This document shows, piece after piece, positions 19,885 to 58,946 of a stretch of DNA of 64,000 bases. The stretch lies in the UHGV virus genome UHGV-0015805; one strand, written 5' to 3'. The translations under genes and the position numbers were made by a program. Origin of the DNA: a virus. The notes beneath the pieces were generated by a model. It saw only the letters and a program-made list of their open reading frames with translations, was not told the origin of the DNA and made no database searches. Numbering within the stretch: position 1 is the stretch's first letter; every line of letters begins with the position of its first letter.

Positions 19885-21377
19885 TGTAACAAGTGAGCGT
19901 GAAGCAGATGCCGCAGAACGAGTAATTTCGGTAATGCCAGTTAATACATAATTTATTTGCCAGAGGACGCCAACCCTCTAAGCGATTCTTGAAAAAATAT
20001 TTTATAAGAATTGTCCTTATCAAATAAATAATAAGGTATTCTTATCAAAGGAATGTTGTTTTCTTTGCAATAAGCATCTTTTATCTTATCATGCCTTTTA
20101 GTGCTTTCAAAAGTTTTTTGAGCGCGCTCAAATGATATGCGATTAAAACAACACGGTTTATAGTGACCTTGTCCGTCTATTTCCACAAGAATGCCACCAT
20201 CTACGATGTAGAAATCAAACGGTAACGGCAGTATATCCCTGCATTGATTTAATGAATATTGCCGCACATATTTAATATTAAGTTCTTGTAGAAGCTTTTC
20301 AAACATGTCCTCAAACCGCGACATGCTCTTAGCGCAAACAGAACACCTCGTTTTCCCATTTTGAAACGCCGCTATTGATGTATCAAATCGGTTGCCACAT
20401 TCGCAAATAAACGAAAGGGATGTCAATCTTCCACCTTGATACTCTTTGTCGTTGCAAAATCCAATACACTCTACGTTTGCGCCATGTGTACTTGCCCACC
20501 AATTCACATTGTAAATATAGTTCTTTCTATTTATCCGAACATCAAAACGAGACATTCCTTTGCCAGAATTTATTGCAGCTGCAGAAATAAATCCTCTATA
20601 TCCTTCGGCGTCCTCGACCTCTACCCTTTGAGCATACTTTAAATCTCTCGTATCTTCATCAGATATTATCTTATAGCCGTGTGCGGATATCATCTCTCCG
20701 TATATTCTTTTTTGTCTTTTTGACGCCCGAACTTTTGTTGCGCATGACACGCAAACGAAACGATTTCTACAAGATATCTCGTATACTTTTTTACGAAATA
20801 CATTTCCACAACCGCAACGAAGTTCAATTATGGCGCACCCGTTTCGACCAGTTGACCACGAGACAAACTCAGTGGTCGGCGCACATTTTGACAAAAGAAC
20901 ACGCATATTATGCTCGATGTTTGCGTAATTATATTTACCCCATATTGTTGGCGACTTACCAGCCTTTAAGTTGGAATAAGACGCATAACACCATATTCCG
21001 TCCTTTCTTTCGCAAAGCACATATTCGTTTGCATTGACATAATCACCAATTATTTTAAGTCCATGAGAGTTAAACAATTTTATAACTTCAGAATATTCTA
21101 ATTTTTTCAAGAATCCTCCCTCTTTCAATGGAGATTAGACCATATCTTTTTTACCTATGTTTCCCCGCGCTTGCGGGTATGCCTACTGAATTAGTAGGGC
21201 TTACTGGTCGTTGAACAGTTATCAATTACCTATTGATAACTTGCTGCGGATTATCCAATCTCTATATTTGTTACTATACAGCAGTCATTACTTGCTCCAC
21301 CGCATTATTACTAATACGGTTTAGTATATAGAGCTCTAAGGAACTTCCCGTCAATTTATAGGTTTTTAATTGACCTA
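19885..21377 (-). mobile_element. group I intron (TMP intron 2) carrying a HEG in its 3' part
   Basis: On the minus-strand RNA: P-like AAUUGACGGGAAG (plus 21344-21356), Q AAUCCGCAGC (21243-21252), R GUUCAACGACCAG (21199-21211), S AAGAUAUGGUCU (21137-21148). P7 is GACCA/UGGUC, co-varied relative to GACUA/UAGUC in the other introns. Confidence 0.55.
19953..21128 (-). CDS. intron-encoded PD-(D/E)xK (DUF559/Vsr-like) homing endonuclease with Cys-rich repeats
   Basis: C-terminus ILPLPFDFYIVDGGILVEIDGQGHY...KRHDKIKDAYCKENNIPLIRIPY. Repeated CxCGN / CxxC motifs. UUG start. Confidence 0.55.
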   Translation of the reverse strand: MKEGGFLKKLEYSEVIKLFNSHGLKIIGDYVNANEYVLCERKDGIWCYASYSNLKAGKSPTIWGKYNYANIEHNMRVLLSKCAPTTEFVSWSTGRNGCAIIELRCGCGNVFRKKVYEISCRNRFVCVSCATKVRASKRQKRIYGEMISAHGYKIISDEDTRDLKYAQRVEVEDAEGYRGFISAAAINSGKGMSRFDVRINRKNYIYNVNWWASTHGANVECIGFCNDKEYQGGRLTSLSFICECGNRFDTSIAAFQNGKTRCSVCAKSMSRFEDMFEKLLQELNIKYVRQYSLNQCRDILPLPFDFYIVDGGILVEIDGQGHYKPCCFNRISFERAQKTFESTKRHDKIKDAYCKENNIPLIRIPYYLFDKDNSYKIFFQESLRGLASSGK

Positions 21378-21695
21378 TTAACCTAAGCCAATGCTCTCTT
21401 CCATCGTATTTCCGCCAACAGACATTGCGGCAGACATATTTCCGAGGTTTCGAGCTAAATCTGCTGAAGAAACCGCCATATGGTTGCTGACATTATTGAC
21501 GCTATCAATGATATGAGAAGATTCATCAGCAGCAATATTAAATGCCTTCATCTGGGCAATGATAAACTCAGATGCTTCACCCGCCGAAAGTTGCTCATCG
21601 GCGATATTTTGGTACATAGCGGCAACTTTTGCTAATTCCGCAGCATCGGTTTCATTGAACCCGGCTTTCGCAAATTCGGTTGCGCTTTCCACCAT
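21378..21695 (-). CDS. tail tape measure protein, exon 2 (approximate boundaries)
   Basis: ...AELAKVAAMYQNIADEQLSAGEASEFIIAQMKAF... is TP901-type TMP N-terminal region-like. Flanked by intron core elements on both sides. Confidence 0.5.
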   Translation of the reverse strand: MVESATEFAKAGFNETDAAELAKVAAMYQNIADEQLSAGEASEFIIAQMKAFNIAADESSHIIDSVNNVSNHMAVSSADLARNLGNMSAAMSVGGNTMEESIGLG

Positions 21696-22252
21696 TTGGG
21701 ACTTTTATTCAATCTTTCTTGGAGTAATCAATAAATCCCCAATCGTTATGCTCTTTTTCTTCTCTTCTGTACCGCTCGGACACCCGCCTATCTTCTTCTT
21801 CCCATTTTCTGTATTGTTCGGGATTATTCTTCTTGGCAGCATCCTTATCAAAAGGAATTCCAAAAACAACATGCCTGAAGAAGCAAGCAACGCCATAGCA
21901 GACACAATAAAGCATCATCAAAGGAACCGCAATTAACAACATAATCAAGCCCACCTTTCTTTGTTGATGCCATTATAACACATAACTTTTAGATTGTCAA
22001 TACCTTTTTCGAAATATTCTGGACTATTTCTTCACCCTATTTAATTTGGAGGGGTCGAACTTATAAAGTCTCTTGACACATCCCTGTTCGGGACTTCGCG
22101 CCCAATCTACCATTGTTTGTCCCGAACAATATACAATATTCGTGACAAATTGCACTTAGGTCTTTCGACCATATGCTATCCCGCTTATTTTTAACAGTTT
22201 CCCACATTCACACTTGGGCTTATTTCATCCCTATGTTGTAGTTAAACAGGCT
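21696..22252 (-). mobile_element. group I intron (TMP intron 1), no HEG
   Basis: P AAUAAGCGGGAUAG (plus 22176-22189), Q AAGUCCCGAAC (22086-22096), R-like GUCAAGAGACUUUAUAAG (22060-22080), S AAGAAAUAGUCC (22021-32). Its 5' block (22208-22241) is near-identical to 40687-40720 of the TerL intron. Confidence 0.45.
21709..21954 (-). CDS. small intron-embedded ORF (single TM, charged C-terminus)
   Basis: 81 aa, MGLIMLLIAVPLMMLYCVCYGVACFF... Occupies the position where the other introns carry a HEG. Confidence 0.25.
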   Translation of the reverse strand: MGLIMLLIAVPLMMLYCVCYGVACFFRHVVFGIPFDKDAAKKNNPEQYRKWEEEDRRVSERYRREEKEHNDWGFIDYSKKD

Positions 22253-22720
22253 TTAGGTTTTACTGGGTTTTGAACAATTCTCTGTGCTGGTTTGCCATCC
22301 CATCACACGGGCTCCCGTCCATAGTTTACCCGTCTTCGCAACTTCTGCTCCCATGTCGGTTAGCTTGCTCACATATTCGTCCATTGATTCGCCGGACAAA
22401 TCTGTGACCTTTGCTAATTCGACCTGCGCGGCATTCATGGTGTAGACTTCAGAGACCATAGACTTAATAATATCTATGCTCTTCTCCATAATCATGTTCG
22501 CCGCTTGATATGTTAATTCAAAATTCTTCGCGCTGGACGAGGCTTCGTTCATGTTCTTCGACAGATTGCTTATTCCGTCAGATGCTTCCTTAGCCCCTTT
22601 TGCTTTGATATTGATATTGACATTTTTTGCCGCGTCATTCAATTTCTTTTGAATTTCGCTTGTACTTGTCTTTATCTCAATACCTACGCCAATATTCCAG
22701 CTCGTGTTTTTATTCGCCAT
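22253..22720 (-). CDS. tail tape measure protein, exon 1 (3' end approximate)
   Basis: N-terminal TMP-like sequence ...AAQVELAKVTDLSGESMDEYVSKLTDMGAEVAKTGK. The terminal residues with the stop fall inside the intron's conserved 5' block. Confidence 0.5.
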   Translation of the reverse strand: MANKNTSWNIGVGIEIKTSTSEIQKKLNDAAKNVNINIKAKGAKEASDGISNLSKNMNEASSSAKNFELTYQAANMIMEKSIDIIKSMVSEVYTMNAAQVELAKVTDLSGESMDEYVSKLTDMGAEVAKTGKLWTGARVMGWQTSTENCSKPSKT

Positions 22721-30000: not shown

Positions 30001-30855
30001 TTACTGAATGGTATAAACGCCAGCATAAGCAGAAGAAGCATATGCAAACGCATAGCTGATTCTCTGCGTGAAGTTGCTGGTGATGTCGGCATTCATATAG
30101 AAATCATTGCTGTTCGTCAGTTTCGTAGACAGAACGCCCTTCAGCAGTTTGTCCTGAGACGGAGAAACAACATAAATCTTGTTGTCGGGCAGAACGAGCT
30201 GACCGTCAGCGCCAACAGCGTTGTCAAGCTTCAGCACATCAAAGCCCATGATGCTTCTCATAAGCTCAACCTTGCCGTCGCCTTCGCCATCAACATTCAG
30301 ACGATAGCCAGAAGTGCTGTCAGGGATAACATTCATAAGAGCAGTAGCAGAGCCTGCGAACACAGGACGCACACCGCCATTGCGATACTGCACAGTTTCG
30401 CCCATCTTGACAAGCGTCTTGAGGTCGAACGCGCCAGTAACACTCAGAGCACCTGCAGGAATGGTAGCCAGACCAGCAGTCAGAATGTTCAGAGCATCGC
30501 CATACATTGCGGCATTGATGGACGCCACAACCCACATCAGCATTTCGCCAATATCTTCCTTGCCCGCAAGAACATTGTACATCTTAGCAAAGACTGTAAC
30601 AATGCGTTCCTCGGGAGCAACAGTCACATCGGTGGAATAACCGTGCTGTCTAAACGAGGTCCTTTCAGAACGCCCACCTTTTGAAATCAAGTAGTAGCCT
30701 CTTGCAGGCACGCGGAACTTAACCACATCACCAGCGTTTTCAGTACGCATGTCAGCGAACAGGTTAAACTGCGGCAGAATGGTCTGCGGAATAATTGCAC
30801 GGACGGTCGCATTTGCAATCGAAAGTGCAGCAATAATGTTCACATAAAGGCGCAA
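30001..30855 (-). CDS. major capsid protein, exon 2 (3' portion)
   Basis: 284 aa, UUG as first sense codon. HK97-fold MCP-like composition and position. Preceded by intron P7/P9 elements. Confidence 0.5.
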   Translation of the reverse strand: MRLYVNIIAALSIANATVRAIIPQTILPQFNLFADMRTENAGDVVKFRVPARGYYLISKGGRSERTSFRQHGYSTDVTVAPEERIVTVFAKMYNVLAGKEDIGEMLMWVVASINAAMYGDALNILTAGLATIPAGALSVTGAFDLKTLVKMGETVQYRNGGVRPVFAGSATALMNVIPDSTSGYRLNVDGEGDGKVELMRSIMGFDVLKLDNAVGADGQLVLPDNKIYVVSPSQDKLLKGVLSTKLTNSNDFYMNADITSNFTQRISYAFAYASSAYAGVYTIQ

Positions 30856-32299
30856 CCCCTTATGCAGTCTTGTTTCCGTGCGAAACAGACCTCTCGTATT
30901 TTCATACGATGTTCAGACTATATCTTCTTCTTATATATCAATTCTTAAATAATGATGCTCAGTATCGACCAAATACTGCACCCCTTGTTTAATTTGTTCT
31001 TTTGTGGGGACATTTCCCTTGCTCAAAAACCTCAAGACTTTTATCCCTTTGCGCATAGAATAAAAGTCTCTGCGTTTGTCTTGTTCTTTTTTGTTTTTGT
31101 GCCAAAAATACCCATCAAATTCAACATCAATTTTAACATCACCAATAACAAGTAGACAATCATAAATCACTTTATCAAACGGATAAGATGGGAAGCAATT
31201 TTCTTCTCCATACATTTCAATCAAAAGAGCCACCATTTCTTTCTCTGCTTTAGAGCTTGGGATGGTCCCATTGTTAATCATTGTCGCCCAGGATTTATGT
31301 CGCACCTCTGGACTCGATTGGGAACTTTCACCGCCATATCTCTCAACGCAAGTTTTCTTGGCTTTTTTAATTACCCCATCTGATTTAGCAGGGTTGTCTA
31401 CTCCATATTTCTCAAGACATGTTTTCTTAATTTTGTTCTGAATTTCTGGCGACTGCGAAACATTATTAACGCCATACTTTTTTATAATGGTATTTTTTGC
31501 CTTTTCTTTGAATTGTTGAACATGAAACGGCGCAACAGCCCCATATCTTTCGCGCATAGTACGACTTGCTTTTTCTTTAACCTCTTTGTTTCCAAGCGAA
31601 CACTCGATCCCATATTTTTTAATGTTTGTCCGTTTTATTTTTTCGGCAAATCTCGGAGACTGAATCGCTGCTACAACGCCATATTTAGTTTTCATAGTTT
31701 CACGCATTTTAATATTGCCACAGTCTTTACAAGCAGATTTATTGGATTCTTTTATGGAGCTATAATAGTTGTCTATAGTCTTTGTGAAAATTTTATGGCA
31801 ATAGTCACATTCTACTTGTATTTTCTCTTTTGAACCATGGGTAACAAGTTCTGCTGGAACCTCTATCCAATCTTTACAACTCGTAAATGTATATCCAATA
31901 GACTCATAATATTTACGATTATTTGGATTCCATTTAATTTTTATGTATTGCCCTGGTACAATCATAATATCACTCAATTCTTGGTCTGTTTTTGATATAT
32001 AAGAGTTACATTTTTCTTCCCGCATTAGCTTCGGGTTTTACTCCCCCTCAAGGGGATAGTCGTTGGGGGTTTCTCATATGCATTTGTCACATTTTATAGT
32101 GCATCAATACACTTAGAGCTTTCCCTGCGAAAGACCCATTTACATTCACTTAGGATTTAACCATATGAATATCCTCTAACTTTTTTCTGTTTTCACAGCC
32201 ATTCAGCTTGCCTTTTCAAGCTACTGTTTAGGCATAGAGGCTTTAGGGATTCAACGCATTTAACGTAAAGTCTTTACATTTTGCAATATAAAGAGGGCT
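30856..32299 (-). mobile_element. group I intron in the capsid gene with HEG in the P8 region
   Basis: R CAACGACUAUCCCC (plus 32052-32065) and S AAGAUAUAGUCUGAAC (30915-30926) bracket the HEG. P9-like hairpins CGUAUgaaaAUACG and GUUUCgcacGGAAAC before exon 2. Confidence 0.5.
30931..32025 (-). CDS. intron-encoded DUF559/Vsr-like (PD-(D/E)xK) homing endonuclease with tandem KYG DNA-binding repeats
   Basis: C-terminus PFDKVIYDCLLVIGDVKIDVEFDGYFWH...RRDFYSMRKGIKVLRF. Five or more repeats of the form K.KYGV.N..QSPE...KIKKT. Confidence 0.55.
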   Translation of the reverse strand: MREEKCNSYISKTDQELSDIMIVPGQYIKIKWNPNNRKYYESIGYTFTSCKDWIEVPAELVTHGSKEKIQVECDYCHKIFTKTIDNYYSSIKESNKSACKDCGNIKMRETMKTKYGVVAAIQSPRFAEKIKRTNIKKYGIECSLGNKEVKEKASRTMRERYGAVAPFHVQQFKEKAKNTIIKKYGVNNVSQSPEIQNKIKKTCLEKYGVDNPAKSDGVIKKAKKTCVERYGGESSQSSPEVRHKSWATMINNGTIPSSKAEKEMVALLIEMYGEENCFPSYPFDKVIYDCLLVIGDVKIDVEFDGYFWHKNKKEQDKRRDFYSMRKGIKVLRFLSKGNVPTKEQIKQGVQYLVDTEHHYLRIDI

Positions 32300-32542
32300 T
32301 CAAATTCTTACCCACTGAACAGACGGATGGTTAATCCACGCATCCTGCTCAAGCCCTTCACGAGCAACGCCAGACTTGCGCTCAACCTCAGACATAAAAG
32401 CGGTCTGAAGCAGACCCTTCTTCTCAGAGGAGCGCTCTTTATCTACAACATAAGACATTGCTGCTTCATAGAAATCAGTGTTCCCAGCAGCAAACTTAAT
32501 CAGTTCTTGATTCGTCAGCATATTATAATATTCTCCTTTCAA
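32300..32542 (-). CDS. major capsid protein, exon 1 (putative; 3' end inside the intron)
   Basis: 80-aa ORF immediately upstream of the intron. MCP N-arm-like sequence. Could instead be a separate small protein. Confidence 0.35.
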   Translation of the reverse strand: MKGEYYNMLTNQELIKFAAGNTDFYEAAMSYVVDKERSSEKKGLLQTAFMSEVERKSGVAREGLEQDAWINHPSVQWVRI

Positions 32543-33122: not shown

Positions 33123-34784
33123 TTAATAATTTTCTTTGATTCTGTCCCATACATTCATGGTAGACATATCTTTCTTTTGAATTTCAATCGGTTTAGAGAA
33201 AGCGAAGATTTTATCTGCGTCTTTCTTTGCCGCCTTTTTGAACGCATTAAAGCACTGTGCCTTAACCTTATTACCAAAAGCATCAATCTCGTCCTTGCCA
33301 CAAGCAAGTCCCTCGGCACGCAGTTCCTGATATTTGTCGGCATCAAGATAATCCTTGACTTCATCCAAAATATCTTCAACGCGCTTAGCAATCTCTTTTT
33401 CTTCAATCGCCGCCTTGTATGCTTTCAGTTCGTCAAGCTCTTTTCTCAACTCGTCGATTTCGGCATCTTTCTGCATAATAATTGCGTCTTTTTCGTCGGG
33501 CTCATCTTCAGACTTGCCCTCTTCACCCATGAGATGTTTGAACTCTTCAGGGCAAGAGAACCGCTTAATATCATCGGTTTCGACAAACTCAATGTCAACT
33601 TTGACCATTTCATCGTCCATGAACAGCCCATCTTCCGTATAGCTAAAATTGATACGGAATCTGTCGCCGTCATCATTTCTGACAATCACAAACTTTTTAT
33701 TATCCTGTTCAAAAATGCCGTCAATGTACCAACGCCAATCATAATTTCTTGCACGAAGCTCATCATTGATTTTCGTCCACATAAGATTGAGGTCAACAGC
33801 CGCAAATGCAACTTCTTTGCTCATTTTTTCATCGTCCTCCTTTCCCTCTTCGTTCAAATCTAATTCATCATAGATTTCTTTTAATTTATTCAAAACCTCC
33901 TGCTCGTCATTCTGTTTAGCATAAGCCAAAGCAGAAGCAAGAGCACGAGTTGAATAACGCCATTCGCCGTCGAACAGCCCCATTACGGGGTAGCCAAGCT
34001 TAGTCACCTCTCTGTCCTCCCAGCCTTCCTCAAGATTGAGACAGACCTTTGGTGCGAGAGATTTATAATTCTTCTCTTTAATCAAATCTTGCTTGGCCTT
34101 GTTTCCATCCCACTCACCAGTATAAACGGCGTCTTTAGAAGTGTTGATGGGATGAGATACATATTTCTTTTCAGCCATAGATTGTTTCCTCGTTTCAACA
34201 AATTTGGTTAGATTAGATACGGCATTTGTAGCACTGGCAAAATAAGCATCAGCCTCTTCTGCTGTGAACCGCACCATCTGTATATCTGCATCAGGACATG
34301 AACCGTTCACCTTTTTCCCAAGACAAGTTAGTCCAAAGATATCAAATGCTATAACCTCATGTTCGTCATCATCTTCTGTGTCAACTGTCATTTCCACAGA
34401 ACTATTACGCAAATTGTCAAATTCAAAAATATCGTTAAAATCTTTTCCATATTTTTTACTGACAACCGAATAAGCATATGCCTTGGTCACACCTGCATCT
34501 TCAACAAACTCAATGTCTTGTTCTATAGGAAAATAGCCATATATAATTTCATCGTATTCATGACTCATTGCATCGCCAAATCGCACCTTAGCCACAAGGA
34601 AATTGCCAAGAATGGTGCCAGCATATTCCCGCAATACATCATCGTTAATGTTCAGCTCGTGTGCGTTTGGTTTGGTGCTAAGAAAGCAACACTTATACAC
34701 GGCGAATTTATGCTCTGGATAGGCATCTGTCCAATGAGGAATTTCTACGGCGTCCTCCATTTGAAACCTTACATTTTTTCTCAA
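33123..34784 (-). CDS. head morphogenesis protein (scaffold-like acidic coiled-coil C-terminus; possible protease/scaffold fusion)
   Basis: 553 aa. The C-terminal third is very acidic coiled coil (EEGKEDDEKMSKE...DELRKELDELKAYKAAIEEKEIAK). Sits between portal and capsid. Confidence 0.35.
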   Translation of the reverse strand: MRKNVRFQMEDAVEIPHWTDAYPEHKFAVYKCCFLSTKPNAHELNINDDVLREYAGTILGNFLVAKVRFGDAMSHEYDEIIYGYFPIEQDIEFVEDAGVTKAYAYSVVSKKYGKDFNDIFEFDNLRNSSVEMTVDTEDDDEHEVIAFDIFGLTCLGKKVNGSCPDADIQMVRFTAEEADAYFASATNAVSNLTKFVETRKQSMAEKKYVSHPINTSKDAVYTGEWDGNKAKQDLIKEKNYKSLAPKVCLNLEEGWEDREVTKLGYPVMGLFDGEWRYSTRALASALAYAKQNDEQEVLNKLKEIYDELDLNEEGKEDDEKMSKEVAFAAVDLNLMWTKINDELRARNYDWRWYIDGIFEQDNKKFVIVRNDDGDRFRINFSYTEDGLFMDDEMVKVDIEFVETDDIKRFSCPEEFKHLMGEEGKSEDEPDEKDAIIMQKDAEIDELRKELDELKAYKAAIEEKEIAKRVEDILDEVKDYLDADKYQELRAEGLACGKDEIDAFGNKVKAQCFNAFKKAAKKDADKIFAFSKPIEIQKKDMSTMNVWDRIKENY

Positions 34785-34819
34785 TGTTCATCCTCCTTTC
34801 CTCAAGGATAGCAAATATA

Positions 34820-35000: not shown

Positions 35001-35516
35001 TTAGTTGGACTCCTTGAGAATCCAGAAGTCAGGAACATCGTGGTCATAAGCGCCGATTCTTTCATCGCCATAAATGACCATCTTATCATTGAGCAAAATT
35101 ACCTGCTCGACGATTTCATTTACATCCTCCAGCATATCCAGCAAATCGGCATAAACATGGATATCGTTGTTATCAAGCGCAATTTTGCATGCGCCCATAA
35201 ACATTATCTGGAAATCAATGACGCGTCGTTCAACCTCAGCAATAATGTCGCTGGCTCTGTCATAATCCTCAGCGCCACTTGGCGTCTCGCCATAGATGAC
35301 GGCGATATTATAGCGCTCAAGGCATCTCTCTGCGATTTTATCTGCCAGCGCTAACGGCCAATGGGCAATCCCGTGATGGATTAAATTTGCAGACTGATTG
35401 CAAGCAAATTTTACACCTAAGACCGAAACGCACCTATCTGTAACTCTGTTGAGAACAAAGCACTGTTTGATTAACTCCATAAGAGCGGACTGTGTGTTAT
35501 TAGATACAATCGTCAT
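35001..35516 (-). CDS. hypothetical protein (possible nucleotide-hydrolase-like)
   Basis: 171-aa ORF, fold not identified. Confidence 0.35.
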   Translation of the reverse strand: MTIVSNNTQSALMELIKQCFVLNRVTDRCVSVLGVKFACNQSANLIHHGIAHWPLALADKIAERCLERYNIAVIYGETPSGAEDYDRASDIIAEVERRVIDFQIMFMGACKIALDNNDIHVYADLLDMLEDVNEIVEQVILLNDKMVIYGDERIGAYDHDVPDFWILKESN

Positions 35517-36555
35517 TGGAATTATCTCCTAATATATTATTTATTTTTGCCTTAAAAGAACCATCCATAATTTCAACATAGCTCAACGCAAGATATTTAT
35601 AGCCACAAGATTTGGCATATTCCATTTTATAGTTATCACGCCATTGCAAATCTTTTAGCCATTCGCCTTGCGTCTTGTCTCCAAGCCAACACTTTGGAGC
35701 ACATGGCAAATAATGCTGTATGCCATGCACCTCTATAATAATATTGTGCCCTACTATTTCATTATCAAACGGCATTCTACTGCCCGTATTCGGATTTATT
35801 GGTACAATAGCGCAAGCGTACTCATGCAATGTCTGCAACCCAAGACACTTATTGATATAGTGTTTAACGGCAAGCTCTATGCTTGAATCGGTCATCTCGC
35901 CCAGGCAATCAGGGCACATTAAATCATAAACCCTTGAATATAAAGCAAGTGCACTTGTCTTATATTCCTTTCCGCACTTAGGACATATAATATAAACGTC
36001 CCTATGGCTTTTTGCAGTAAGCTCATTCGGAGCGCGGTCGTTTTTGTCACTCCAAATATTAGAAAGTTCTACGTCTGGATATTTAGATATCAACGAATCC
36101 ATTAAGCTACCATTTTCTCTTATTGAATTTAACGACCTTTTGTACGCAACATATTCCTTTATAGATTTGAACCCATGCTTCTTACACTCATTACACGCCG
36201 TTATCTTGCCAGATGTCAAATCATATACAGCCACTTCAATGGTGTTCCCACATTTGCATCTACACTTCCATAAAAATCCATTCTTAGTAACTATATATGT
36301 GTTCTCGATTGCGACTAATGTCCCAAATGTTCTGCCTTGCAAATTGGCCGTTCGTCTTATGGATGAATCTTTATCTCTAATGCACCCACAGCTAAGAGAT
36401 GCTCCGCTTTTAAGGTGTGTGCCCATAACAGATTTAATATTGCCACACGAACATCTACATATCCATCTAATATGCCCAGCAGAGTTCTCTTCGTCCTTAT
36501 GCAATACTTGCCATTCTCCAAATTCCAGCCCAGTCAAATCTTTGAATTTCCCCAT
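35500..36555 (-). CDS. free-standing DUF559/Vsr-like homing endonuclease with zinc-finger-like repeats
   Basis: C-terminus RMPFDNEIVGHNIIIEVHGIQHY...RDNYKMEYAKSCGYKYLALSY. CRCSCGN, CRCKCGN, ICPKCGK and CPDCLG motifs. Own GGAGGU RBS. No intron core elements in the flanks. Confidence 0.5.
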   Translation of the reverse strand: MGKFKDLTGLEFGEWQVLHKDEENSAGHIRWICRCSCGNIKSVMGTHLKSGASLSCGCIRDKDSSIRRTANLQGRTFGTLVAIENTYIVTKNGFLWKCRCKCGNTIEVAVYDLTSGKITACNECKKHGFKSIKEYVAYKRSLNSIRENGSLMDSLISKYPDVELSNIWSDKNDRAPNELTAKSHRDVYIICPKCGKEYKTSALALYSRVYDLMCPDCLGEMTDSSIELAVKHYINKCLGLQTLHEYACAIVPINPNTGSRMPFDNEIVGHNIIIEVHGIQHYLPCAPKCWLGDKTQGEWLKDLQWRDNYKMEYAKSCGYKYLALSYVEIMDGSFKAKINNILGDNSNDDCI

Positions 36556-36721
36556 ATAATATCAACCTCCGTTAAAAGTTAATATTAAGCGGTAATCCAA
36601 GTATTAACGGTACTTGAAAACACCCGTCGGTGCTGTCCCGCTGTTCATCCTCATTCAAGCATCTCACGGCTTGCATATTCCCAAATAAAACCTTTTGATG
36701 TTTTTCGCTTTCCTTAATATA

Positions 36722-36923: not shown

Positions 36924-38492
36924 TTAATCGGCATACAATTCGCGGCTTGCCTCGGTCGCAGCATCTACCGCTCCTTCTTCGCGCGGTCTGCCACCTTCTG
37001 ATTCCTGCGAAGTTGTATTGATGTTTACCATAAGTTGGCTATATTGCTCAAGCCATCCAGTGTTCTTGCTCTCTCTCAAAGCCGCCTCAAACAATGCGGG
37101 GTTCTGCCCTAAAACAGATGCCCAAGCAGATGGCGGCAAAACAATGCCCCTGTCTGCCAATTTGTTAATTTGGTCAAATCTTTGAGTGCGATCATATCTA
37201 TATGTCGCGCCGTCAAATGTAAACTTGAACTTATACTTCTTTGTCATTTGATTAACAAAGAAATCCATAAAGTTGTTAAACTGTGCATACATTGGACGCA
37301 TGGTTTGATAAACTTCGTTCTGTTGCGCCTCAAGTTCCGCCGCGCTTACTCTGTCAGTAGAATAAATAACGCGACTAATGCCAGTGCCACTTGCAGCAGT
37401 TGTAGCAACCTGGTCTTTATACATGTCGCCGTTTTTATCCTCAAACTGGAACAGTTTGTTATCTTCGGTCGGCATTGCCCCCAATTTAACAAGAGAACCG
37501 AATCCCGCCTTTGCCTTTGCCATAAGCTGCCCAAGCAGTTTAAGGTTAATTGCAAACTGGTCTTTTTGTTCGCCCGATTTTGCACCATCATAAAGCCTGA
37601 TTGTGCCGACAAGAATTGCATATGCAGAAATCAGGTCTTTATTATATTGCAGGCGCTCAACTTCTTCGTCTCGAAGAATATTCTTGACAAAAGATGCCAA
37701 GAACGGTACGGGAGAAAATGTTGATGGGTCCATTTTGAAAGTATAGGCTCCAAGAACAGGTGACGCATCTGCCCACAAAGCATATGTGCCAGTTCGCTTA
37801 TTTAATGGCGCAGACGGTTTATAATCAATGCCAGGAGATTCCATGACTCGCTCATACATCTTGCGTACAGCGGGGTCAAATTCGCCAATGTCGACGCCCG
37901 GTTGCATAAAGTATGTCATGTCCATTGAGTAAAGTAAGCCCTTTTCCCAATAGCCCGTAATCATACATCTGTCCTGCGGCATCATCTGCAATGCATACCG
38001 CATTTTCTTATTGCCATTGCCAGGCTTTGATTTGCGGAACCATGTGAAATATGTTTCGCGCCGCATAACATTCATCAGAACATTATGGAATTCTTTCTTG
38101 TAATCAAAGTTAAGAAGAAAGTCCTCGACCCGCGCTTTATCTTTTACATATTCAGCGCTTTCATAGTCCGCCTTTGTATATGCATTTGTGCACACATAAG
38201 ACAGGTCAAGCGCCAAAGAATTTACATAAGAATACAGGGTGCGCTTGAATATCATGTTGAATTGAGCCGCGAACTCATTATACATTTGCAGATTTTCAGG
38301 ACACGAATTAAAATCAACCAATGCCTTTTGAATGGCATCATAAGACGGGACGCCTTTTATTGTATTCAAATTCTGCAAAAGTTCATTTGATAAAAATGGC
38401 GAATAGTAATTAGAATCCATAAAGGCAAGCCCCTCAGAAAACTTTATAATGTCCTCAAGCTCTTCTCTTTCAAGCCTTTCTTTTCCGTTCAC
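36924..38492 (-). CDS. portal protein
   Basis: 522 aa, immediately after the terminase large subunit. Size and position are typical. Acidic C-terminus. Confidence 0.5.
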   Translation of the reverse strand: MNGKERLEREELEDIIKFSEGLAFMDSNYYSPFLSNELLQNLNTIKGVPSYDAIQKALVDFNSCPENLQMYNEFAAQFNMIFKRTLYSYVNSLALDLSYVCTNAYTKADYESAEYVKDKARVEDFLLNFDYKKEFHNVLMNVMRRETYFTWFRKSKPGNGNKKMRYALQMMPQDRCMITGYWEKGLLYSMDMTYFMQPGVDIGEFDPAVRKMYERVMESPGIDYKPSAPLNKRTGTYALWADASPVLGAYTFKMDPSTFSPVPFLASFVKNILRDEEVERLQYNKDLISAYAILVGTIRLYDGAKSGEQKDQFAINLKLLGQLMAKAKAGFGSLVKLGAMPTEDNKLFQFEDKNGDMYKDQVATTAASGTGISRVIYSTDRVSAAELEAQQNEVYQTMRPMYAQFNNFMDFFVNQMTKKYKFKFTFDGATYRYDRTQRFDQINKLADRGIVLPPSAWASVLGQNPALFEAALRESKNTGWLEQYSQLMVNINTTSQESEGGRPREEGAVDAATEASRELYAD

Positions 38493-38513: not shown

Positions 38514-39494
38514 TTAATATACAAGTTGTAAATCGTCAATATCATAATCTTCATCGTCATTGGTCAGGCGTTTATTCCATTCCATTTCGATTTTATCGAT
38601 TACAATATTGACATAAGACATAACAACAACGCGGTCTTTGGTCGCCTTATTGTCTTCTTTAAGATATAGATTGTCTCCCTTTATTTCTGTGTTAAGCTTG
38701 ATTGCTTCCTGAATAAGCAGGTCTGTCTCGCCATAAGGGGCAAGCTTGTCTGCTAATTCTTCTGAGGTCAATTTGAAGTATTCGCCCGAATCTTCAAGCT
38801 CTTGCTGTTTGTCCGCCATAGATACAAGCATCTTTATGTCGTTACATTCAAGATGCTTTCTAAGTGCAAGCCACCAAACACCATTCTTTTGTGCCGAGCC
38901 CTGTGCAGGAATAATGCATGGGACAGCATCTTTATCAACCGTCCGCATACGCAAATCGGCAAGCTTTGATTCTGTTACGAGGTGATAGTTAAAATTCTGA
39001 GCGACTGTCAATCCTCGTGAATCCCACATATAGCCGCGCCTTGGATGCGTCCTTTTTTCGGTCATAAGGTTATATAGTGTTTCGCCGCCCGCTCTAAGGT
39101 CGTTTACAATAAAGTCTGCGTTATAGTCCCAAAACAGCTCTCTAACGCGCCATTGCGCGCCTGTACTGTCTGAGGCGGGCCATTGTTCCATATATTCAAG
39201 ACTACGGATGAACCGACCGTTTTTCCAGACAGCCGACCAGCACTCAATAATTGTATTATCGTTGCCGTATCCCGTCTTAAATGTTGTGTTCGCAAATGCG
39301 TAGTCAACGCCAACAAGCCGTATTTCGTCCGCTTGTTTTTCTCTGAACGGCGGCTTTGTGTTCGCCAATACCTGTGTATCGGTAGGCGGAACATATGCCT
39401 CTGGAATTTCTTGATTGTCCTTAAAATTCTTTAGGCTAAAGAATGCACCTTCGGGACTACCCTGTGTTTCATTTTCCATCTCCATTGAAAACAT
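38514..39494 (-). CDS. terminase large subunit, exon 2 (nuclease domain)
   Basis: LVGVDYAF (first catalytic Asp motif of the terminase RNase-H-like nuclease), further acidic motifs, acidic C-terminal tail. Confidence 0.55.
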   Translation of the reverse strand: MFSMEMENETQGSPEGAFFSLKNFKDNQEIPEAYVPPTDTQVLANTKPPFREKQADEIRLVGVDYAFANTTFKTGYGNDNTIIECWSAVWKNGRFIRSLEYMEQWPASDSTGAQWRVRELFWDYNADFIVNDLRAGGETLYNLMTEKRTHPRRGYMWDSRGLTVAQNFNYHLVTESKLADLRMRTVDKDAVPCIIPAQGSAQKNGVWWLALRKHLECNDIKMLVSMADKQQELEDSGEYFKLTSEELADKLAPYGETDLLIQEAIKLNTEIKGDNLYLKEDNKATKDRVVVMSYVNIVIDKIEMEWNKRLTNDDEDYDIDDLQLVY

Positions 39495-40745
39495 TTTTTT
39501 AAACTATTTTTTTTGAGGTTAATTATATATATTGCCAGTGAAATCCATATGCGATCCGTTGTTGCCCGCGACAACACTTGGAAATTGAGGACGGGTCCTT
39601 GTTCAAGGCACGACCCGCCTCAGCCACGGATTCATAAGTAACTCCCGTTTCGACACACATCAGCTTCTTCCCACCAATGTTAAGATGTGCAATCCGCGAT
39701 TGATCTCGCATCTCCTCTGTCCAAATTCGATTTTTATTATATCTTCTAAGATGCTCTTTTACGCTTTCTGGACATTTGTGCCCTACTCCGTTCCTCTTAC
39801 CTTTCATCCTCTCCGACCTACGACGGCATATTTCTTCCGAAAGCTTCCATGTTTTGCCTTTTACATTTTGGTTGCCCATTATACTTTGGCTTATTTTATT
39901 TCTTGTTTCTTCGGAATGTTTTTTGCCGAACATGTGATTATCTTTCCCGCATTTTATTTGTTCCGGGTGTTCTTTAAAACGTTTTTTAGCTATTTCGCTC
40001 ATTCTCTTCTTGTCTTCTTCTCTGTGACGATATCCTTTTGTGCTTTCTGCTATCGGACATATATTGTATCCGACATCTCTGTCGGCACTATCATAAAAAT
40101 CTATCCAATACTGCTCGCGTTGTGTTAAATTTTCGTGCGATACGCCTCTTTCCAACACTTCAACACTAAAGTTATCAAATCCATACTTTTTAATAGCCAT
40201 GCAGATACGCCTATTTGTATCTTCGCGTAAGTATTGTTTCATACGAGTATAAAAATCCACCGTCTGCCCGACATAAACCTTCCCGTTTATTAGGTTTCGC
40301 CATAAATAAATGCAACTAAAAGAAAATTTCTTTTTATCATTAACCTCAAAAATATTCATGCTATAAAATCCTTCCTGCAATAAAGATTATTATTCAAGAA
40401 CAAATGGGGTAATTTGTTCGTTTGCAGACGAACAAAAACAATTTGCAACTTGCTGTCCCCCATTGTTCTTTTAAGCACAGGTCGCTACTCCTCGTTTCTC
40501 TCGTTTTTTTGAGAGACTGCATGTTTCCATGCAGATAAGACTATATCTTCACTTTGCTTTTATGCAAAGGCATACCACTTCCACAACCAATCGCTTGTTG
40601 TGTACTCCCTTACGGGATAGTCGTTGAACGTTCCTCTATTCAAAGCTTCGCTGCTGATTGCCCAATTTTTATCATTTTCTCGCATATCACACTTAGCCTT
40701 ATTTCATGCTTATGTTGTAGCTGATAAAACTCTAAGGGTGTTCCA
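39495..40745 (-). mobile_element. group I intron in the terminase gene with a GIY-YIG HEG in a 3' extension
   Basis: Q AAUCAGCAGC (plus 40650-40659), R GUUCAACGACUAUCCC (40614-40629), S AAGAUAUAGUCU (40538-40549), P9 GNRA hairpin CUGCAUGgaaaCAUGCAG (40517-40534), P8 CACAACaagcgauugGUUGUG. Confidence 0.55.
39523..40359 (-). CDS. GIY-YIG homing endonuclease (I-TevI/Seg-like) with NUMOD3-type repeats
   Basis: MNIFEVNDKKKFSFSCIYLWRNLINGKVYVGQTVDFYTRMKQYL (GIY...YVG...R motif). GKKHSEETRNKISQS is a NUMOD3-like repeat. RBS AGGAAGGA. Confidence 0.7.
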   Translation of the reverse strand: MNIFEVNDKKKFSFSCIYLWRNLINGKVYVGQTVDFYTRMKQYLREDTNRRICMAIKKYGFDNFSVEVLERGVSHENLTQREQYWIDFYDSADRDVGYNICPIAESTKGYRHREEDKKRMSEIAKKRFKEHPEQIKCGKDNHMFGKKHSEETRNKISQSIMGNQNVKGKTWKLSEEICRRRSERMKGKRNGVGHKCPESVKEHLRRYNKNRIWTEEMRDQSRIAHLNIGGKKLMCVETGVTYESVAEAGRALNKDPSSISKCCRGQQRIAYGFHWQYI

Positions 40746-41594
40746 GCAATTCAATATGTTTAATGCGAACCTTTTCAAATCCGCTTTGGACATTTTCTTC
40801 TTTGCCTTTCGGTAGTCCGCCCATGTTCGGCTTCCTTCTTGAATTGCAGTATAAATGTCCTCTGCCATAGGAATGTACTTCTCGTGCTTTGATGTATAAT
40901 AGCCCTCAACGCATTTTCTGTATTCTCTGATAAACCATTCCCACTCATACCGAGTAGATGAAATATAGCAAGATTTTGCTGCCTTTATCCACCTATCTGT
41001 TTTATACTTAGGGTCAAGTGTAAATGGCGCAGGACGCTCATGCCCCATTGGCTCAAATACTGAGTCAAGAATTGCTTTCTTCAGCAATCGCGTCTCTTCA
41101 TATATCGTAAATGTAGAACGCATACCACGGGCGTTTTCAGAACACACAGCGACCGTTGTCGTTGATTCATTTAATGTGTTCGTTAAGACGAAAACACCCT
41201 CATCAAGCATTTTAACTGTCAAATAGCCCTTCTCATACAAATACTTCAAATATGGCGAATATTTCTTAATGATTTCTTTTATCATCTTATCTCTTACAAG
41301 TCTTGCGGACTGCGGGATAGAAGATGATGTAACAACAATTTCTGAATGCGGATATAAACTCATTGCACAAAATGCAGCAACGCCAACAATAAAAGACTTC
41401 GCCGTTGAACGAGACGAAAAATCCCAATATTCGTCGGCAACGCCGATCATGTGCAATTTCAGCTTCTGCACAGGATATAGCTTAATACCAAGGACCTCTT
41501 CAGCAAATAAGTCCCAATTCCTGCGATAATAAGTTATCCACTTTTTGACATTTTCGGACTTGCGGAATTGTTCGTTTTCTCTTGCGGTCGGCAT
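40710..41594 (-). CDS. terminase large subunit, exon 1 (ATPase domain; last ~15-20 codons are intron read-through)
   Basis: LYPVQKLKLHMI and a P-loop-like SSRSTAKSF. Walker B-like TFTIYEE. AAGGAG RBS. Start overlaps the TerS-like stop. Confidence 0.55.
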   Translation of the reverse strand: MPTARENEQFRKSENVKKWITYYRRNWDLFAEEVLGIKLYPVQKLKLHMIGVADEYWDFSSRSTAKSFIVGVAAFCAMSLYPHSEIVVTSSSIPQSARLVRDKMIKEIIKKYSPYLKYLYEKGYLTVKMLDEGVFVLTNTLNESTTTVAVCSENARGMRSTFTIYEETRLLKKAILDSVFEPMGHERPAPFTLDPKYKTDRWIKAAKSCYISSTRYEWEWFIREYRKCVEGYYTSKHEKYIPMAEDIYTAIQEGSRTWADYRKAKKKMSKADLKRFALNILNCWNTLRVLSATT

Positions 41595-42484
41595 TACAAC
41601 TGCTCCTTAGGAATATTGGGGTAGTTCTTCGTCCCCGCAATCATATTCTGCATTGACCGCATCCAATCATTATATATTTTCTCATAGCCCTTAACATCCT
41701 TATACCGCTCCTCATCCGTCAATTCAGCAGGCTCAGTATTCTCAAATTTCCATGCCAAGTGGTCTATGTATCTATCTTCGTCCGATTTTGTATTGTCTCT
41801 GAAATCATCTATGCGCAACAATTTCATCCATTTCAGGATTTCATCAGTTGTAGATTTTGTTTCTTCGCCCGCTTCGCTTTCTTTCTTAAAGCGCAAATTG
41901 CATTTGCATAAAGACCTATATGCCTTTTCCGCCGAAACAGATATGGCTTCGAGGTCGCGCGTGTAGTCCAAATATTCTCTTTCAAGCCAATCCCAATCAT
42001 CGGCTGTATAATCGCCCCAACGCGCTCTATACTTGTTTGCGTCTGCGAGATGGCGGTCAATATCCTTAACTTCGCCACCAACGCCCGTCTTTATCATGTC
42101 GGACAACATGGCATCTGATTGCCAAAAGCCCTCATATACGCGATTTAAGTTAGCAAGCGAAATCAAGTAGAATGTGATTAAATCACCCGTTTTGTCGTTT
42201 TCATACATTTCAGATGCAGCATACCACGCCTCCAAAATGAACGGAACGCCCATCTGCGCCAAAACAAGCCACAGTGCCGCCATCGGCTTTTCTACCTTAT
42301 CTGTGTAGTCTTTAAGTAATCTTTTGCCACACCTGCGGCACACAAAAAATTGCATGTTGGGAACGGATGTCGTTGAGTAAAAATCGCTTATTGGCTTTCT
42401 TGACCCACAGGCAACGCACAGCCGCACATTCCTGCTATCCGCCCTAATGCTTTTGGTCGGAGCTTTCTTTTTTGCTGTCGGCAC
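41594..42484 (-). CDS. TerS-like DNA-binding protein with N-terminal zinc ribbon (function tentative)
   Basis: CVACGSRK...CRRCGKR. Positioned directly upstream of and coupled to terL. 296 aa is large for a small subunit. Confidence 0.3.
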   Translation of the reverse strand: MPTAKKKAPTKSIRADSRNVRLCVACGSRKPISDFYSTTSVPNMQFFVCRRCGKRLLKDYTDKVEKPMAALWLVLAQMGVPFILEAWYAASEMYENDKTGDLITFYLISLANLNRVYEGFWQSDAMLSDMIKTGVGGEVKDIDRHLADANKYRARWGDYTADDWDWLEREYLDYTRDLEAISVSAEKAYRSLCKCNLRFKKESEAGEETKSTTDEILKWMKLLRIDDFRDNTKSDEDRYIDHLAWKFENTEPAELTDEERYKDVKGYEKIYNDWMRSMQNMIAGTKNYPNIPKEQL

Positions 42485-58872: not shown

Positions 58873-58946
58873 GCTGTAATAGCTCAACGGAAGAGCAATC
58901 GGCTTATAACCGATAGACGATAGTTCGACACTATCTTACAGTACCA
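58873..58946 (+). tRNA. tRNA, anticodon UAU (Ile, AUA-decoding) with encoded CCA
   Basis: Manual fold. Acceptor GCUGUAA/UUACAGU. D arm GCUC-AACGGAA-GAGC. Anticodon arm AUCGG-CUUAUAA-CCGAU. Variable loop AGAC. T arm GAUAG-UUCGACA-CUAUC. U8, A14, G18G19, U33, A37, U54U55C56 and G53-C61 all present. 3' ACCA. Confidence 0.7.

Follow-up and report, generated by a model that had tools for sequence, protein, structure and literature searches.

We describe a group I intron that interrupts the gene of a divergent large terminase subunit (TerL) in the viral genome UHGV-0015805, apparently an uncultured tailed phage from the gut. The whole analysed stretch of 64,000 nucleotides is called the window here, and the features discussed are on its minus strand unless otherwise noted (Table 1). 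The intron carries a homing endonuclease gene (HEG), and we put the probability that it is a functional or recently functional mobile element at about 0.9. According to this explanation the insertion follows codon 272 of TerL (Asp, GAU) and precedes codon 273 (Phe, UUU), and the intron would be transcribed together with the gene as a single pre-mRNA. Its guide sequence would pair with the last bases of exon 1, forming P1 with the pair U40779-G40770, as well as with the first bases of exon 2, forming P10. Splicing would begin with the attack of a guanosine cofactor at the 5' splice site; exon 1, released in this way, would then attack after G39492, whereby the exons would be ligated and a TerL of 597 amino acids restored. 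In a mixed infection, TerL alleles that lack the intron would be cut by the endonuclease close to this site and repaired off the intron-bearing copy, which would insert the intron, i.e. the intron would home.

The region contains three open reading frames (ORFs), 40710..41594 (294 amino acids), 39523..40380 and 38514..39494 (326 amino acids). An earlier reading of the letters and ORFs alone, made without database searches (the sequence-only reading), had taken the first and the third as the separate ATPase and nuclease halves of TerL, and both ORFs are found exactly where it had put them.

Table 1. Features of the interrupted TerL gene, its intron and the other mobile elements of the window. 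A caret marks a splice site.
Feature	Coordinates	Strand	Remarks
TerL exon 1	40779..41594	-	codons 1-272 up to ...K-A-D, U40779 being the last base; comprises N-terminal region and ATPase domain
Complete group I intron	39492..40778	-	1287 nt, U40778 to terminal G39492; from Rfam, absence of the block in L001-L003, P1/P10/terminal G, and the intron of the same length in L086
P1	40765..40784	-	exon GCGGAU^UU (40784-40777), GAAA loop (40776-40773), guide AGGUUCGC (40772-40765)
Ribozyme core	40517..40758	-	
P3	40758-40753/40576-40571	-	
P4	40748-40743/40657-40652	-	
P5	40738-40736/40663-40661	-	long P5 extension
Q	40659-40650	-	AAUCAGCAGC
P6	40651-40649/40630-40628	-	with P6a
R	40629-40614	-	GUUCAACGACUAUCCC
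P7	40622-40618/40543-40539	-	
P7.1	40617-40606	-	
P7.2	40602-40582	-	
P8 hairpin	40569-40552	-	helix coordinates corrected by eye
P8	40569-40564/40557-40552	-	
S	40549-40538	-	AAGAUAUAGUCU
P9	40534-40517	-	CUGCAUG-GAAA-CAUGCAG
P9.1	40516-40497	-	UCUCUC/GAGAGA; minimum-free-energy and centroid folds; helix name assigned by us
P9.2	40468-40398	-	long and branched, outer stem 40468-40457/40409-40398; minimum-free-energy and centroid folds; helix name assigned by us
HEG	39523..40359	-	278 amino acids + stop; GIY-YIG, NUMOD3 linker, putative C-terminal NUMOD1/I-HmuI-like helix-turn-helix; 3' of P9-P9.2
3' intron tail	39492..39522	-	31 nt, A/U-rich, ends ...AAAAAAAUG, terminal G39492
TerL exon 2	38514..39491	-	codons 273-597 + stop, starts F-S-M-E-M-E-N; linker and RNase-H-like nuclease domain
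Tape-measure intron	21116-21433	-	Rfam 52.1 bits (threshold 50); ORFs 19953-21128, 16996-19884, 21378-21695
Third group I intron	~32310-30880	-	Rfam 28.8 bits, E 0.001, sub-threshold; HEG ORF 30931-32025
HNH endonuclease ORF	35500-36555	-	351 amino acids, phrog_374/559, in a 1.3-kb block (35318-36644)

Ribozyme core and predicted splice sites

The whole window was scanned with Rfam at the gathering thresholds. The spacer between the two TerL halves gave a match far beyond chance to the Intron_gpI model (RF00028, 40517..40786), with 81.6 bits against a gathering threshold of 50 (E 3.5e-19) and over the full model (1-253). The core elements that the sequence-only reading had picked out, i.e. Q, R, P8, S and P9 with its GAAA loop, are all present on the minus strand at the places it had named.

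The conservation of the pairing was investigated in six related cores: the window, the related loci L073, L066, L074 and L061, and CB457P1/L082, CB457P1 being an Enterocloster phage. RNAalifold recovered P4, P5, P6/P6a, P7, P7.1, P7.2, P8 and P9 from them, and 21 of its 43 pairs stay paired through double changes. When P3 was added as a pseudoknot strand, the structure comprised 49 pairs in 10 helices, and 96.4% of the 279 cells were standard pairs, as compared to 36-47% in slid controls in which the partners were shifted by 1-3 columns. Both-side changes were seen in 25 of the 49 pairs and none of 500 shuffles reached the observed values; note that only six sequences underlie these figures and that the structure was partly derived from the same six. 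The results support the reading of the spacer as a group I intron, for which guanosine-dependent self-splicing is predicted. In other words, TerL appears to be interrupted by an intron of the self-splicing type and not by a free-standing HEG, as the sequence-only reading had proposed, and it is the Rfam score and the covarying core that argue for this. P7.1 and P7.2 indicate that the intron would belong to the IA type, the usual type of phage group I introns (PMC11878797). Of the peripheral helices, P9.1 is seen in the alignment in the window and in the related locus L004, not in CB457P1.

The ends of the intron were located by comparison with uninterrupted relatives. Intact homologous proteins have the consensus ...K-x-M-S-x-x-D^F-x-M-E-x-x-N-E... 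over the junction, and in the window ...KKKMSKAD closes the first ORF and (M)FSMEMENE opens the second. On the DNA level, L001, which encodes the intact protein P0001, reads ...TCA GAT TTT CGC ATG GAG... at the site where the window has ...GCG GAT^(intron)...ATG^TTT TCA ATG GAG. A block of 1287 nt is all that breaks the colinearity of the window with the loci L001, L002 and L003, and blastn finds this block missing in the intron-less relatives between the same two points. Together with the requirement for a terminal G, the intron-less alleles leave a sole consistent solution, in which exon 1 ends at U40779 and the intron ends at G39492. The predicted join, ...AAA GCG GAU^UUU UCA AUG..., is in frame at a nearly invariant D-F, and the predicted joined product of 597 amino acids is colinear with P0001 and L001-L003; alignment of the translated join with intact TerL proteins placed the splice site at D272^F273. 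The predicted ligated junction is ...GCGGAU-UUUUCAAUGG, or, over a longer range, ...AAAGCGGAU-UUUUCAAUGGAG, and the sequences of the insertion site are GTCGCGGATTTTCGCGCAGAG in the L002 type, CTATCAGATTTTCGCATGGAG in the L001 type and AAAGCGGATTTTTCAATGGAG in the ligated exons.

With the ends so placed, the last 22 codons of the 294-amino-acid ORF are predicted to be intron read-through, and the ATG at 39494 that opens the 326-amino-acid ORF would be fortuitous, its G (39492) being the last base of the intron. The sequence-only reading had described a spacer of 1.25 kb; it was right about the presence of a group I intron and not about its extent, which is 1287 nt (40778..39492) and goes beyond the gap between the ORFs.

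The P1 hairpin, GCGGAU^UU-GAAA-AGGUUCGC, was recovered independently by a minimum-free-energy fold; U40779-G40770 is the wobble pair at the splice site. Next to it, A40775-G40771 can pair with the opening bases of exon 2 to form a P10 of 4-5 bp. Both helices covary with the adjoining exons across four introns, namely those of the window (P1 GCGGAU/GUUCGC, P10 UUUU(C)/(G)AAAA), of the loci L086 (UGGAU/GUCCA, UUUC/GAAA) and L073 (UUAGAU/GUCUGG, UUCA/UGAA), and of CB457P1, where the intron is at another site (UGGAU/GUCCA, CUCAG/CUGAG). A pairing partner for the 3' tail was sought in three HEG-bearing introns, with RNAduplex and with folds of ORF-deleted mini-introns, and nothing consistent was found.

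Other solutions were tried and rejected. A 5' splice after U40777, which corresponds to the register of the cmscan alignment, leaves no in-frame 3' site preceded by G that reproduces the homologue sequence. A 3' splice after G39504, in the TAG upstream of the ATG, would insert F-K-K-M, which is absent from all homologues. An intein does not fit an insert that is out of frame with the exons, has its own stop codons and bears a ribozyme signature.

One could also imagine that the ribozyme is a decayed relic and that TerL is made as two polypeptides which assemble non-covalently, i.e. an ATPase with a tail of 22 residues from the intron and a nuclease that starts at M39494. Each half is a complete ORF from start to stop codon, the ATG is exactly where exon 2 begins, the break falls between domains, and the window has a free-standing HNH endonuclease gene elsewhere, all of which would agree with such a scheme. 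Nevertheless we consider it highly improbable. The core is well above the Rfam threshold and, among ten intron-bearing copies, is the segment of the locus that varies least: 6.1% of its columns are variable, as compared to 9-15% for the exons and 12% for the HEG. In one copy, L092, P9 has undergone two double substitutions that are compensatory. P1 and P10 track the exon sequences, and the join is exactly in frame at the nearly invariant D-F. Moreover, there is no Shine-Dalgarno-like motif ahead of the ATG at 39494, where the sequence is AAUAGUUUAAAAAAAUG, and ORF-less introns occupy the same site in the loci L073 and L074.

The interrupted gene

The limits of exon 1 were based on protein alignment to intact homologues, DNA alignment to L001-L003, the positions of motifs and a match to the terminase ATPase fold. 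Neither half of the protein has a match in Pfam, their PHROG matches are families of unknown function, and sequence searches of the PDB, either with the joined protein or with a profile of 39 sequences, gave nothing meaningful. On the other hand, a protein search with the joined TerL found 294 homologues at E <= 0.001. Among the 120 matches listed, the homologues are mostly about 600-625 amino acids long and uninterrupted, and they cover 95-100% of the joined query, which argues that both halves belong to one protein.

An AlphaFold model of the joined protein, built with 39 homologues as input, had a mean predicted local distance difference test score (pLDDT) of 84.9. When it was compared to the PDB using Foldseek, the top 36 matches were all large terminases, full-length as well as single-domain. 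The best was T4 gp17 (E 4e-15), followed by the terminases of Sf6 (gp2), D6E, HK97 and phiV-1, and the single-domain matches include the ATPase domain of P74-26 and the nuclease domains of G20c, Sf6 and RB49. The template modelling scores (TM-scores) of the whole chain are low (0.28-0.42), as expected given the flexible domain arrangement. The sequence contains a Walker A-like SRSTAKS at residue 61, in which R62 and K66 are invariant, a Walker B-like IYEE at residue 164 with an invariant E167, and four further invariant acidic residues (D335, D403, D458 and D558); from these we infer Walker and nuclease roles, respectively. A portal gene (phrog_2739, E 3e-28) is found immediately downstream.

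We accept the host gene as a member of a divergent TerL clade, which is recognised by its predicted fold and its context, not by profile. The terminase identity given by the sequence-only reading agrees with the uninterrupted homologues, the AlphaFold/Foldseek fold and the adjoining portal gene. Its division into an ATPase half and a nuclease half is approximately right, in that the junction 272/273 falls within the interdomain helix of the model; the ends of the ORFs are not, however, the ends of the exons.

Distant relatives of this TerL include those of SPbeta-like Bacillus phages (about 25% identity), and its nearest cultured relatives are phages of Enterocloster bolteae, with about 41% identity. 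When the region was searched with megablast against 50,697 phage records, the sole match was a stretch of 58-66 nt of the intron core, in PhiPA3 and Av-05, i.e. no close isolate is present among these records. A scan of bacterial genomes for a host found only four contigs from metagenome-assembled genomes, with discordant labels (Tenericutes, Butyricimonas, Clostridia and Gastranaerophilales); these are probably binned phage contigs and give no host assignment. Just upstream of TerL, an ORF of 296 amino acids (41594-42484, minus strand) shares one base with the TerL start; it matches phrog_3314 (function unknown), its orthologue in L001 has a weak Pfam match to YonG_N, and its position suggests that it may encode the small terminase subunit.

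Endonuclease, alleles and probable mobility

The ORF within the intron had been read as a GIY-YIG/NUMOD3 endonuclease, and this identity is borne out by two Pfam matches above the cut-off (GIY-YIG, PF01541, 42.4 bits against 22.6; NUMOD3, 32.1 against 20.4) and by the conservation of the catalytic positions of I-TevI. Over its first 100 residues the product can be aligned to the catalytic domain of I-TevI (1LN0/1MK0, E 5e-4), with CIY, YVG, an Arg (FYTRM), a Glu (REQYW) and GYNI in register. At the C terminus, I-HmuI_NUMOD-like (18.3 bits against 27) and NUMOD1 (17.2 against 22.8) are below the Pfam cut-off, and there is a match to a small protein in the PDB (8b6e, E 2e-4). The product matches PHROG 314, 'homing endonuclease', with E 1e-41. 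Its start is most likely the ATG at 40359 and not the TTG at 40380, because the homologues in L086 and CB457P1 start there as well (the three N-termini being MNIFEV, MKIFDI and MKIWEV); a Shine-Dalgarno-like AGGAAGGA is found 9 nt upstream, at 40376-40369 on the minus strand. The ORF ends 28 nt before the nuclease-half ORF, as had been noted (stop ending at 39523, ATG at 39494). Taken together, the sequence points to an intact I-TevI-like endonuclease gene, for which cleavage and homing are predicted.

Some short sequence resemblances are found around this gene. The strand and loop of P9.1, UCUCUCAAAAAAAC (40516-40497), resemble the tail after the ORF, CCUCAAAAAAAAUAG (39518-39504), and AAGGAUUUUAUAGC (40373-40360), just upstream of the HEG start, has GGAUUUU in common with the junction GCGGAU^UUUUCA. 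The latter recalls an idea about sunY and I-TevII that is quoted in PMC3984707: the endonuclease gene would have invaded the intron at a sequence resembling the one that its product cuts. We note that such short, A/U-rich matches may be due to chance.

The same population contains both interrupted and uninterrupted alleles. The intron-less P0001 (597 amino acids, on L001) is 96-97% identical to the joined TerL, and TerL is likewise uninterrupted in the IMG/VR relatives L002 (99% amino acid identity) and L003 (97%); the split (326 amino acids) and intact (597 amino acids) forms fall into one 90% protein cluster. The IMG/VR contig L004 (56 kb) has the same intron as the window. Here the exons are 95.7% and 96.3% identical to those of the window, and the ribozyme is 99.8%, the HEG 99.6% and the tail 100% identical, which amounts to 6 differences in 1287 intron positions versus 72 in 1794 exon positions (Fisher p 2e-11). 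An intron identity of 99.5% as against 96% in the exons indicates a probable recent spread by lateral transfer. Between the window and the intron-less L002 there are 53 differences over the 1794 exon positions. Nine of them cluster no more than 9 nt from the insertion site, the closest of the others being at -33 and +285 (binomial tail of the clustering 3e-9). These flanking differences could reflect short co-conversion tracts, adaptation to P1/P10 or target-site immunity.

It is conceivable that the interruption is an assembly chimera or that the genome in the window is defective or non-viable, given that the window is metagenomic. The exact product of the exon-1 ORF is, however, found on 23 metagenome contigs, 15 of them 50-200 kb and several 72-85 kb long, which come from independent ENA, Logan and NCBI samples (at least one labelled gut metagenome). 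The identical arrangement on these contigs and on L004 effectively refutes the suggestion, and we regard its probability as negligible.

Alternatively, the intron might splice but no longer be mobile, the endonuclease being inactive or retargeted and inheritance vertical only. Some of the data would be compatible with this: the HEG of the copy L095 is frameshifted, the introns in L073 and L074 are ORF-less derivatives at the same site, the 9 differences close to the site could make intron-less alleles poor targets, and a HEG divergence of about 7% between haplotypes suggests long co-residence. We consider it unlikely all the same, as the HEG is intact in 9 of the 10 copies with its catalytic positions kept, and as the contrast between intron and exons in L004 is hard to explain without recent transfer.

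Several points weigh against a functional mobile intron in a terminase gene. Sequence profiles barely recognise the host protein as a terminase (among the 39 homologues, TerL_ATPase is matched by 2 only and Terminase_6C by 1 in Pfam), so that its probable identity comes from the predicted fold and the gene neighbourhood. Splicing and exon ligation are themselves predictions from the sequence. The intron of the window lacks P2, which is present in L073, L066 and CB457P1, and the cmscan alignment sets P1 two bases out of register, in a position that would give no in-frame join after a G. The 3' splice site is about 1 kb from P9, and beyond the 4-5 bp of P10 no conserved pairing between tail and core was found. 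Finally, the HEG divergence of about 7% is seen among some of the intron-plus genomes, which means that not every copy reflects recent transfer.

If the intron is functional, as we believe, TerL expression can reasonably be thought to depend on splicing, because without it there would be no intact TerL ORF. The 'late' timing that the sequence-only reading had added is an assumption made from the role of TerL; cleavage by the endonuclease, the position of the cut and the timing of expression are likewise presumed. For an enzyme like I-TevI, a cut some 20-25 bp upstream of the point of insertion would be expected.

Related introns and other mobile elements

The site in the window is not the only one at which the genes of this clade are interrupted. 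In tblastn searches of related loci with the joined TerL, interruptions were found near residues 66-70, 158/159, 272/273 and 403/404. At 272/273, L086 has a HEG-bearing intron of identical length (Rfam 94.6 bits) in a TerL that is 56% identical to that of the window, with a HEG that is 47% identical on the protein level, and the ORF-less introns of L073 and L074 (68.5 and 70.6 bits) are in TerL genes with about 50% identity. Inserts of about 0.3-1.6 kb near 66-70, 158/159 and 403/404 were seen in L057, L061, L062, L066, L075-L078, L080 and L082. Most of these are below the Rfam gathering threshold, and those without a match may be introns with nested ORFs or other elements. In L066, L061 and L074, group I introns are also found in genes downstream of TerL.

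Five Enterocloster phages (CB457P1, CB457P2 and CB473P1-P3; OP172753-OP172757) have TerL in three pieces, labelled 'hypothetical protein' in GenBank, and the gene is intact in PMBT24; a literature search for introns in Enterocloster phages returned nothing relevant. In CB457P1 the interruption at 403/404 is a group I intron (Rfam 93.6 bits) with the same layout as in the window, i.e. a homologous core, then a GIY-YIG HEG, then a tail, here of 38 nt. The HEG is 35% identical to that of the window (37% in the four sister phages). Unlike the window, CB457P1 has its intron at 403/404 and not at 272/273, has a P2, and has a second interruption at 158/159. The sites 272/273 and 403/404 both directly follow an Asp GAU codon, and L086 and CB457P1 have an identical 5'-exon hexamer, UUGGAU, and the guide GUCCA. 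We offer only tentatively the thought that one lineage of intron and GIY-YIG endonuclease colonised two codon boundaries of TerL, 272/273 (window, L004 and L086) and 403/404 (CB457P1). If true, these phages would preserve a natural record of an intron that transposed within one gene to a similar-looking site, either by reverse splicing or by retargeting of the endonuclease.

The window contains two further group I introns as well as a free-standing HNH endonuclease gene. One intron is in the tape-measure gene, as both flanking fragments match phrog_4211 'tape measure', and its layout is like that of the TerL intron, with the core followed by an ORF of 391 amino acids that matches phrog_559 'HNH endonuclease'. 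The third was missed by the Rfam threshold because an ORF of 364 amino acids (phrog_12131) is nested in its core: CAACGACUA and P7.1/P7.2-like hairpins (about 32065-32030) are upstream of this ORF, and an S element, AAGAUAUAGUC (30926-30916), and a hairpin are downstream. Its host gene appears to run from the ATG at 32520 to about 32312 and to resume in the ORF 30001-30855 (phrog_4088, function unknown). In the close relatives L002 and L004, some 200 nt stand in place of the block with the HNH endonuclease ORF, and the block gave no group I signal even at E <= 1; by appearance the ORF is a free-standing homing endonuclease gene, flanked on either side by a small head-module gene.

The content of mobile elements varies from genome to genome in this phage group. 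L004 has an insertion of about 1.1 kb in the portal gene (5770-6917) that is absent from the window (about 37736-37758), and L002 has one of about 1.1 kb (8369-9507), just upstream of the 553-amino-acid ORF 33123-34784, that is also absent from the window (about 34806-34814). In a gap of about 560 nt between apparent tape-measure fragments (21695-22253, minus strand) there is an S-like AAGAAATAGTC (22022-22032); scanned sensitively with Rfam, the gap gave only a weak Intron_gpI match (15.6 bits, E 0.21), and it could be a degenerate or atypical intron, or nothing. A tRNA gene is found on the plus strand (58873-58943, Rfam 66.7 bits), with the anticodon loop CUUAUAA in the cmscan alignment.

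A TerL intron with a HEG is a familiar kind of phage mobile element, with precedents in phage PH15, in Bastillevirinae and in Twort-like phages. The T4 systems td/I-TevI and nrdD (sunY)/I-TevII resemble ours in that self-splicing introns in an essential phage gene are associated with GIY-YIG endonucleases. The td and sunY introns are of subgroup IA2 and I-TevII is a member of the GIY-YIG family; in sunY the ORF comes after the core and the 3' splice site is remote, and in td the ORF is located in the P6 region. The endonuclease of the window is like I-TevI in the alignment of the catalytic domain and possibly in the order of NUMOD3 and a putative C-terminal helix-turn-helix, the Pfam matches of the latter being below the cut-off. 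The T4 introns differ in that their host genes serve nucleotide metabolism and not packaging, and the similarity of the catalytic domains is low (E 5e-4).

Staphylococcus phage PH15 (NC_008723, ph2/ph3) comes close to the present arrangement, with a TerL annotated as a two-piece join, a nested homing endonuclease and a portal gene following it. Its endonuclease (GIY-YIG, SegB-like) is 34% identical to that of the window over 94% of its length. PH15 is, however, a Rockefellervirus of 44 kb with a Staphylococcus host, its endonuclease is shorter (209 amino acids), and the likeness is drawn from annotation and endonuclease only. Among the Bastillevirinae, 5 of 52 TerL genes are interrupted by group I introns, one to three per gene and mostly of the IA type; the authors report that splicing was confirmed experimentally for their introns, TerL being among the genes of the phages tested (PMC11878797). 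Those TerL introns have phrog_559 'HNH/VSR-like' endonucleases, usually nested within the core, whereas the TerL intron of the window has a phrog_314 GIY-YIG enzyme after the core and phrog_559, the PHROG of the Bastillevirinae TerL introns (PMC11878797), occurs in the tape-measure intron instead. Group I introns in TerL of Twort-like phages are mentioned in PMC6409932, with citation of Kwan 2005 and Gu 2013. A review names terminases among the conserved phage protein-coding genes that are suited as targets of homing endonucleases and describes homing with co-conversion of flanking markers (PMC3984707). Our case is modestly unusual in three respects: in this TerL intron a GIY-YIG gene follows the core, the TerL clade is a divergent one, and introns are dense in the phage group.

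The TerL intron leaves the knowledge of how such elements work unchanged; its relevance is for the phages that carry it. Gene callers split TerL into two 'hypothetical' ORFs and an endonuclease, and the same has happened in the deposited genomes of Enterocloster phages, so the clade will be missed or mis-sized in TerL-based detection, phylogeny and completeness estimates unless introns are modelled. An apparently gut-associated clade, whose cultured relatives infect Lachnospiraceae such as Enterocloster, joins the short list of phage groups that are dense in group I introns. The population has at least four TerL interruption sites and three introns per genome, and the presence or absence of introns differs among genomes that are 87-97% identical on the DNA level. 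At one site, the homing cycle can be studied on material of several kinds, i.e. matched alleles with and without the intron, endonuclease copies that are intact or decayed, and derivatives without an ORF, and the population could serve for watching homing and intron turnover in phages of the human gut.

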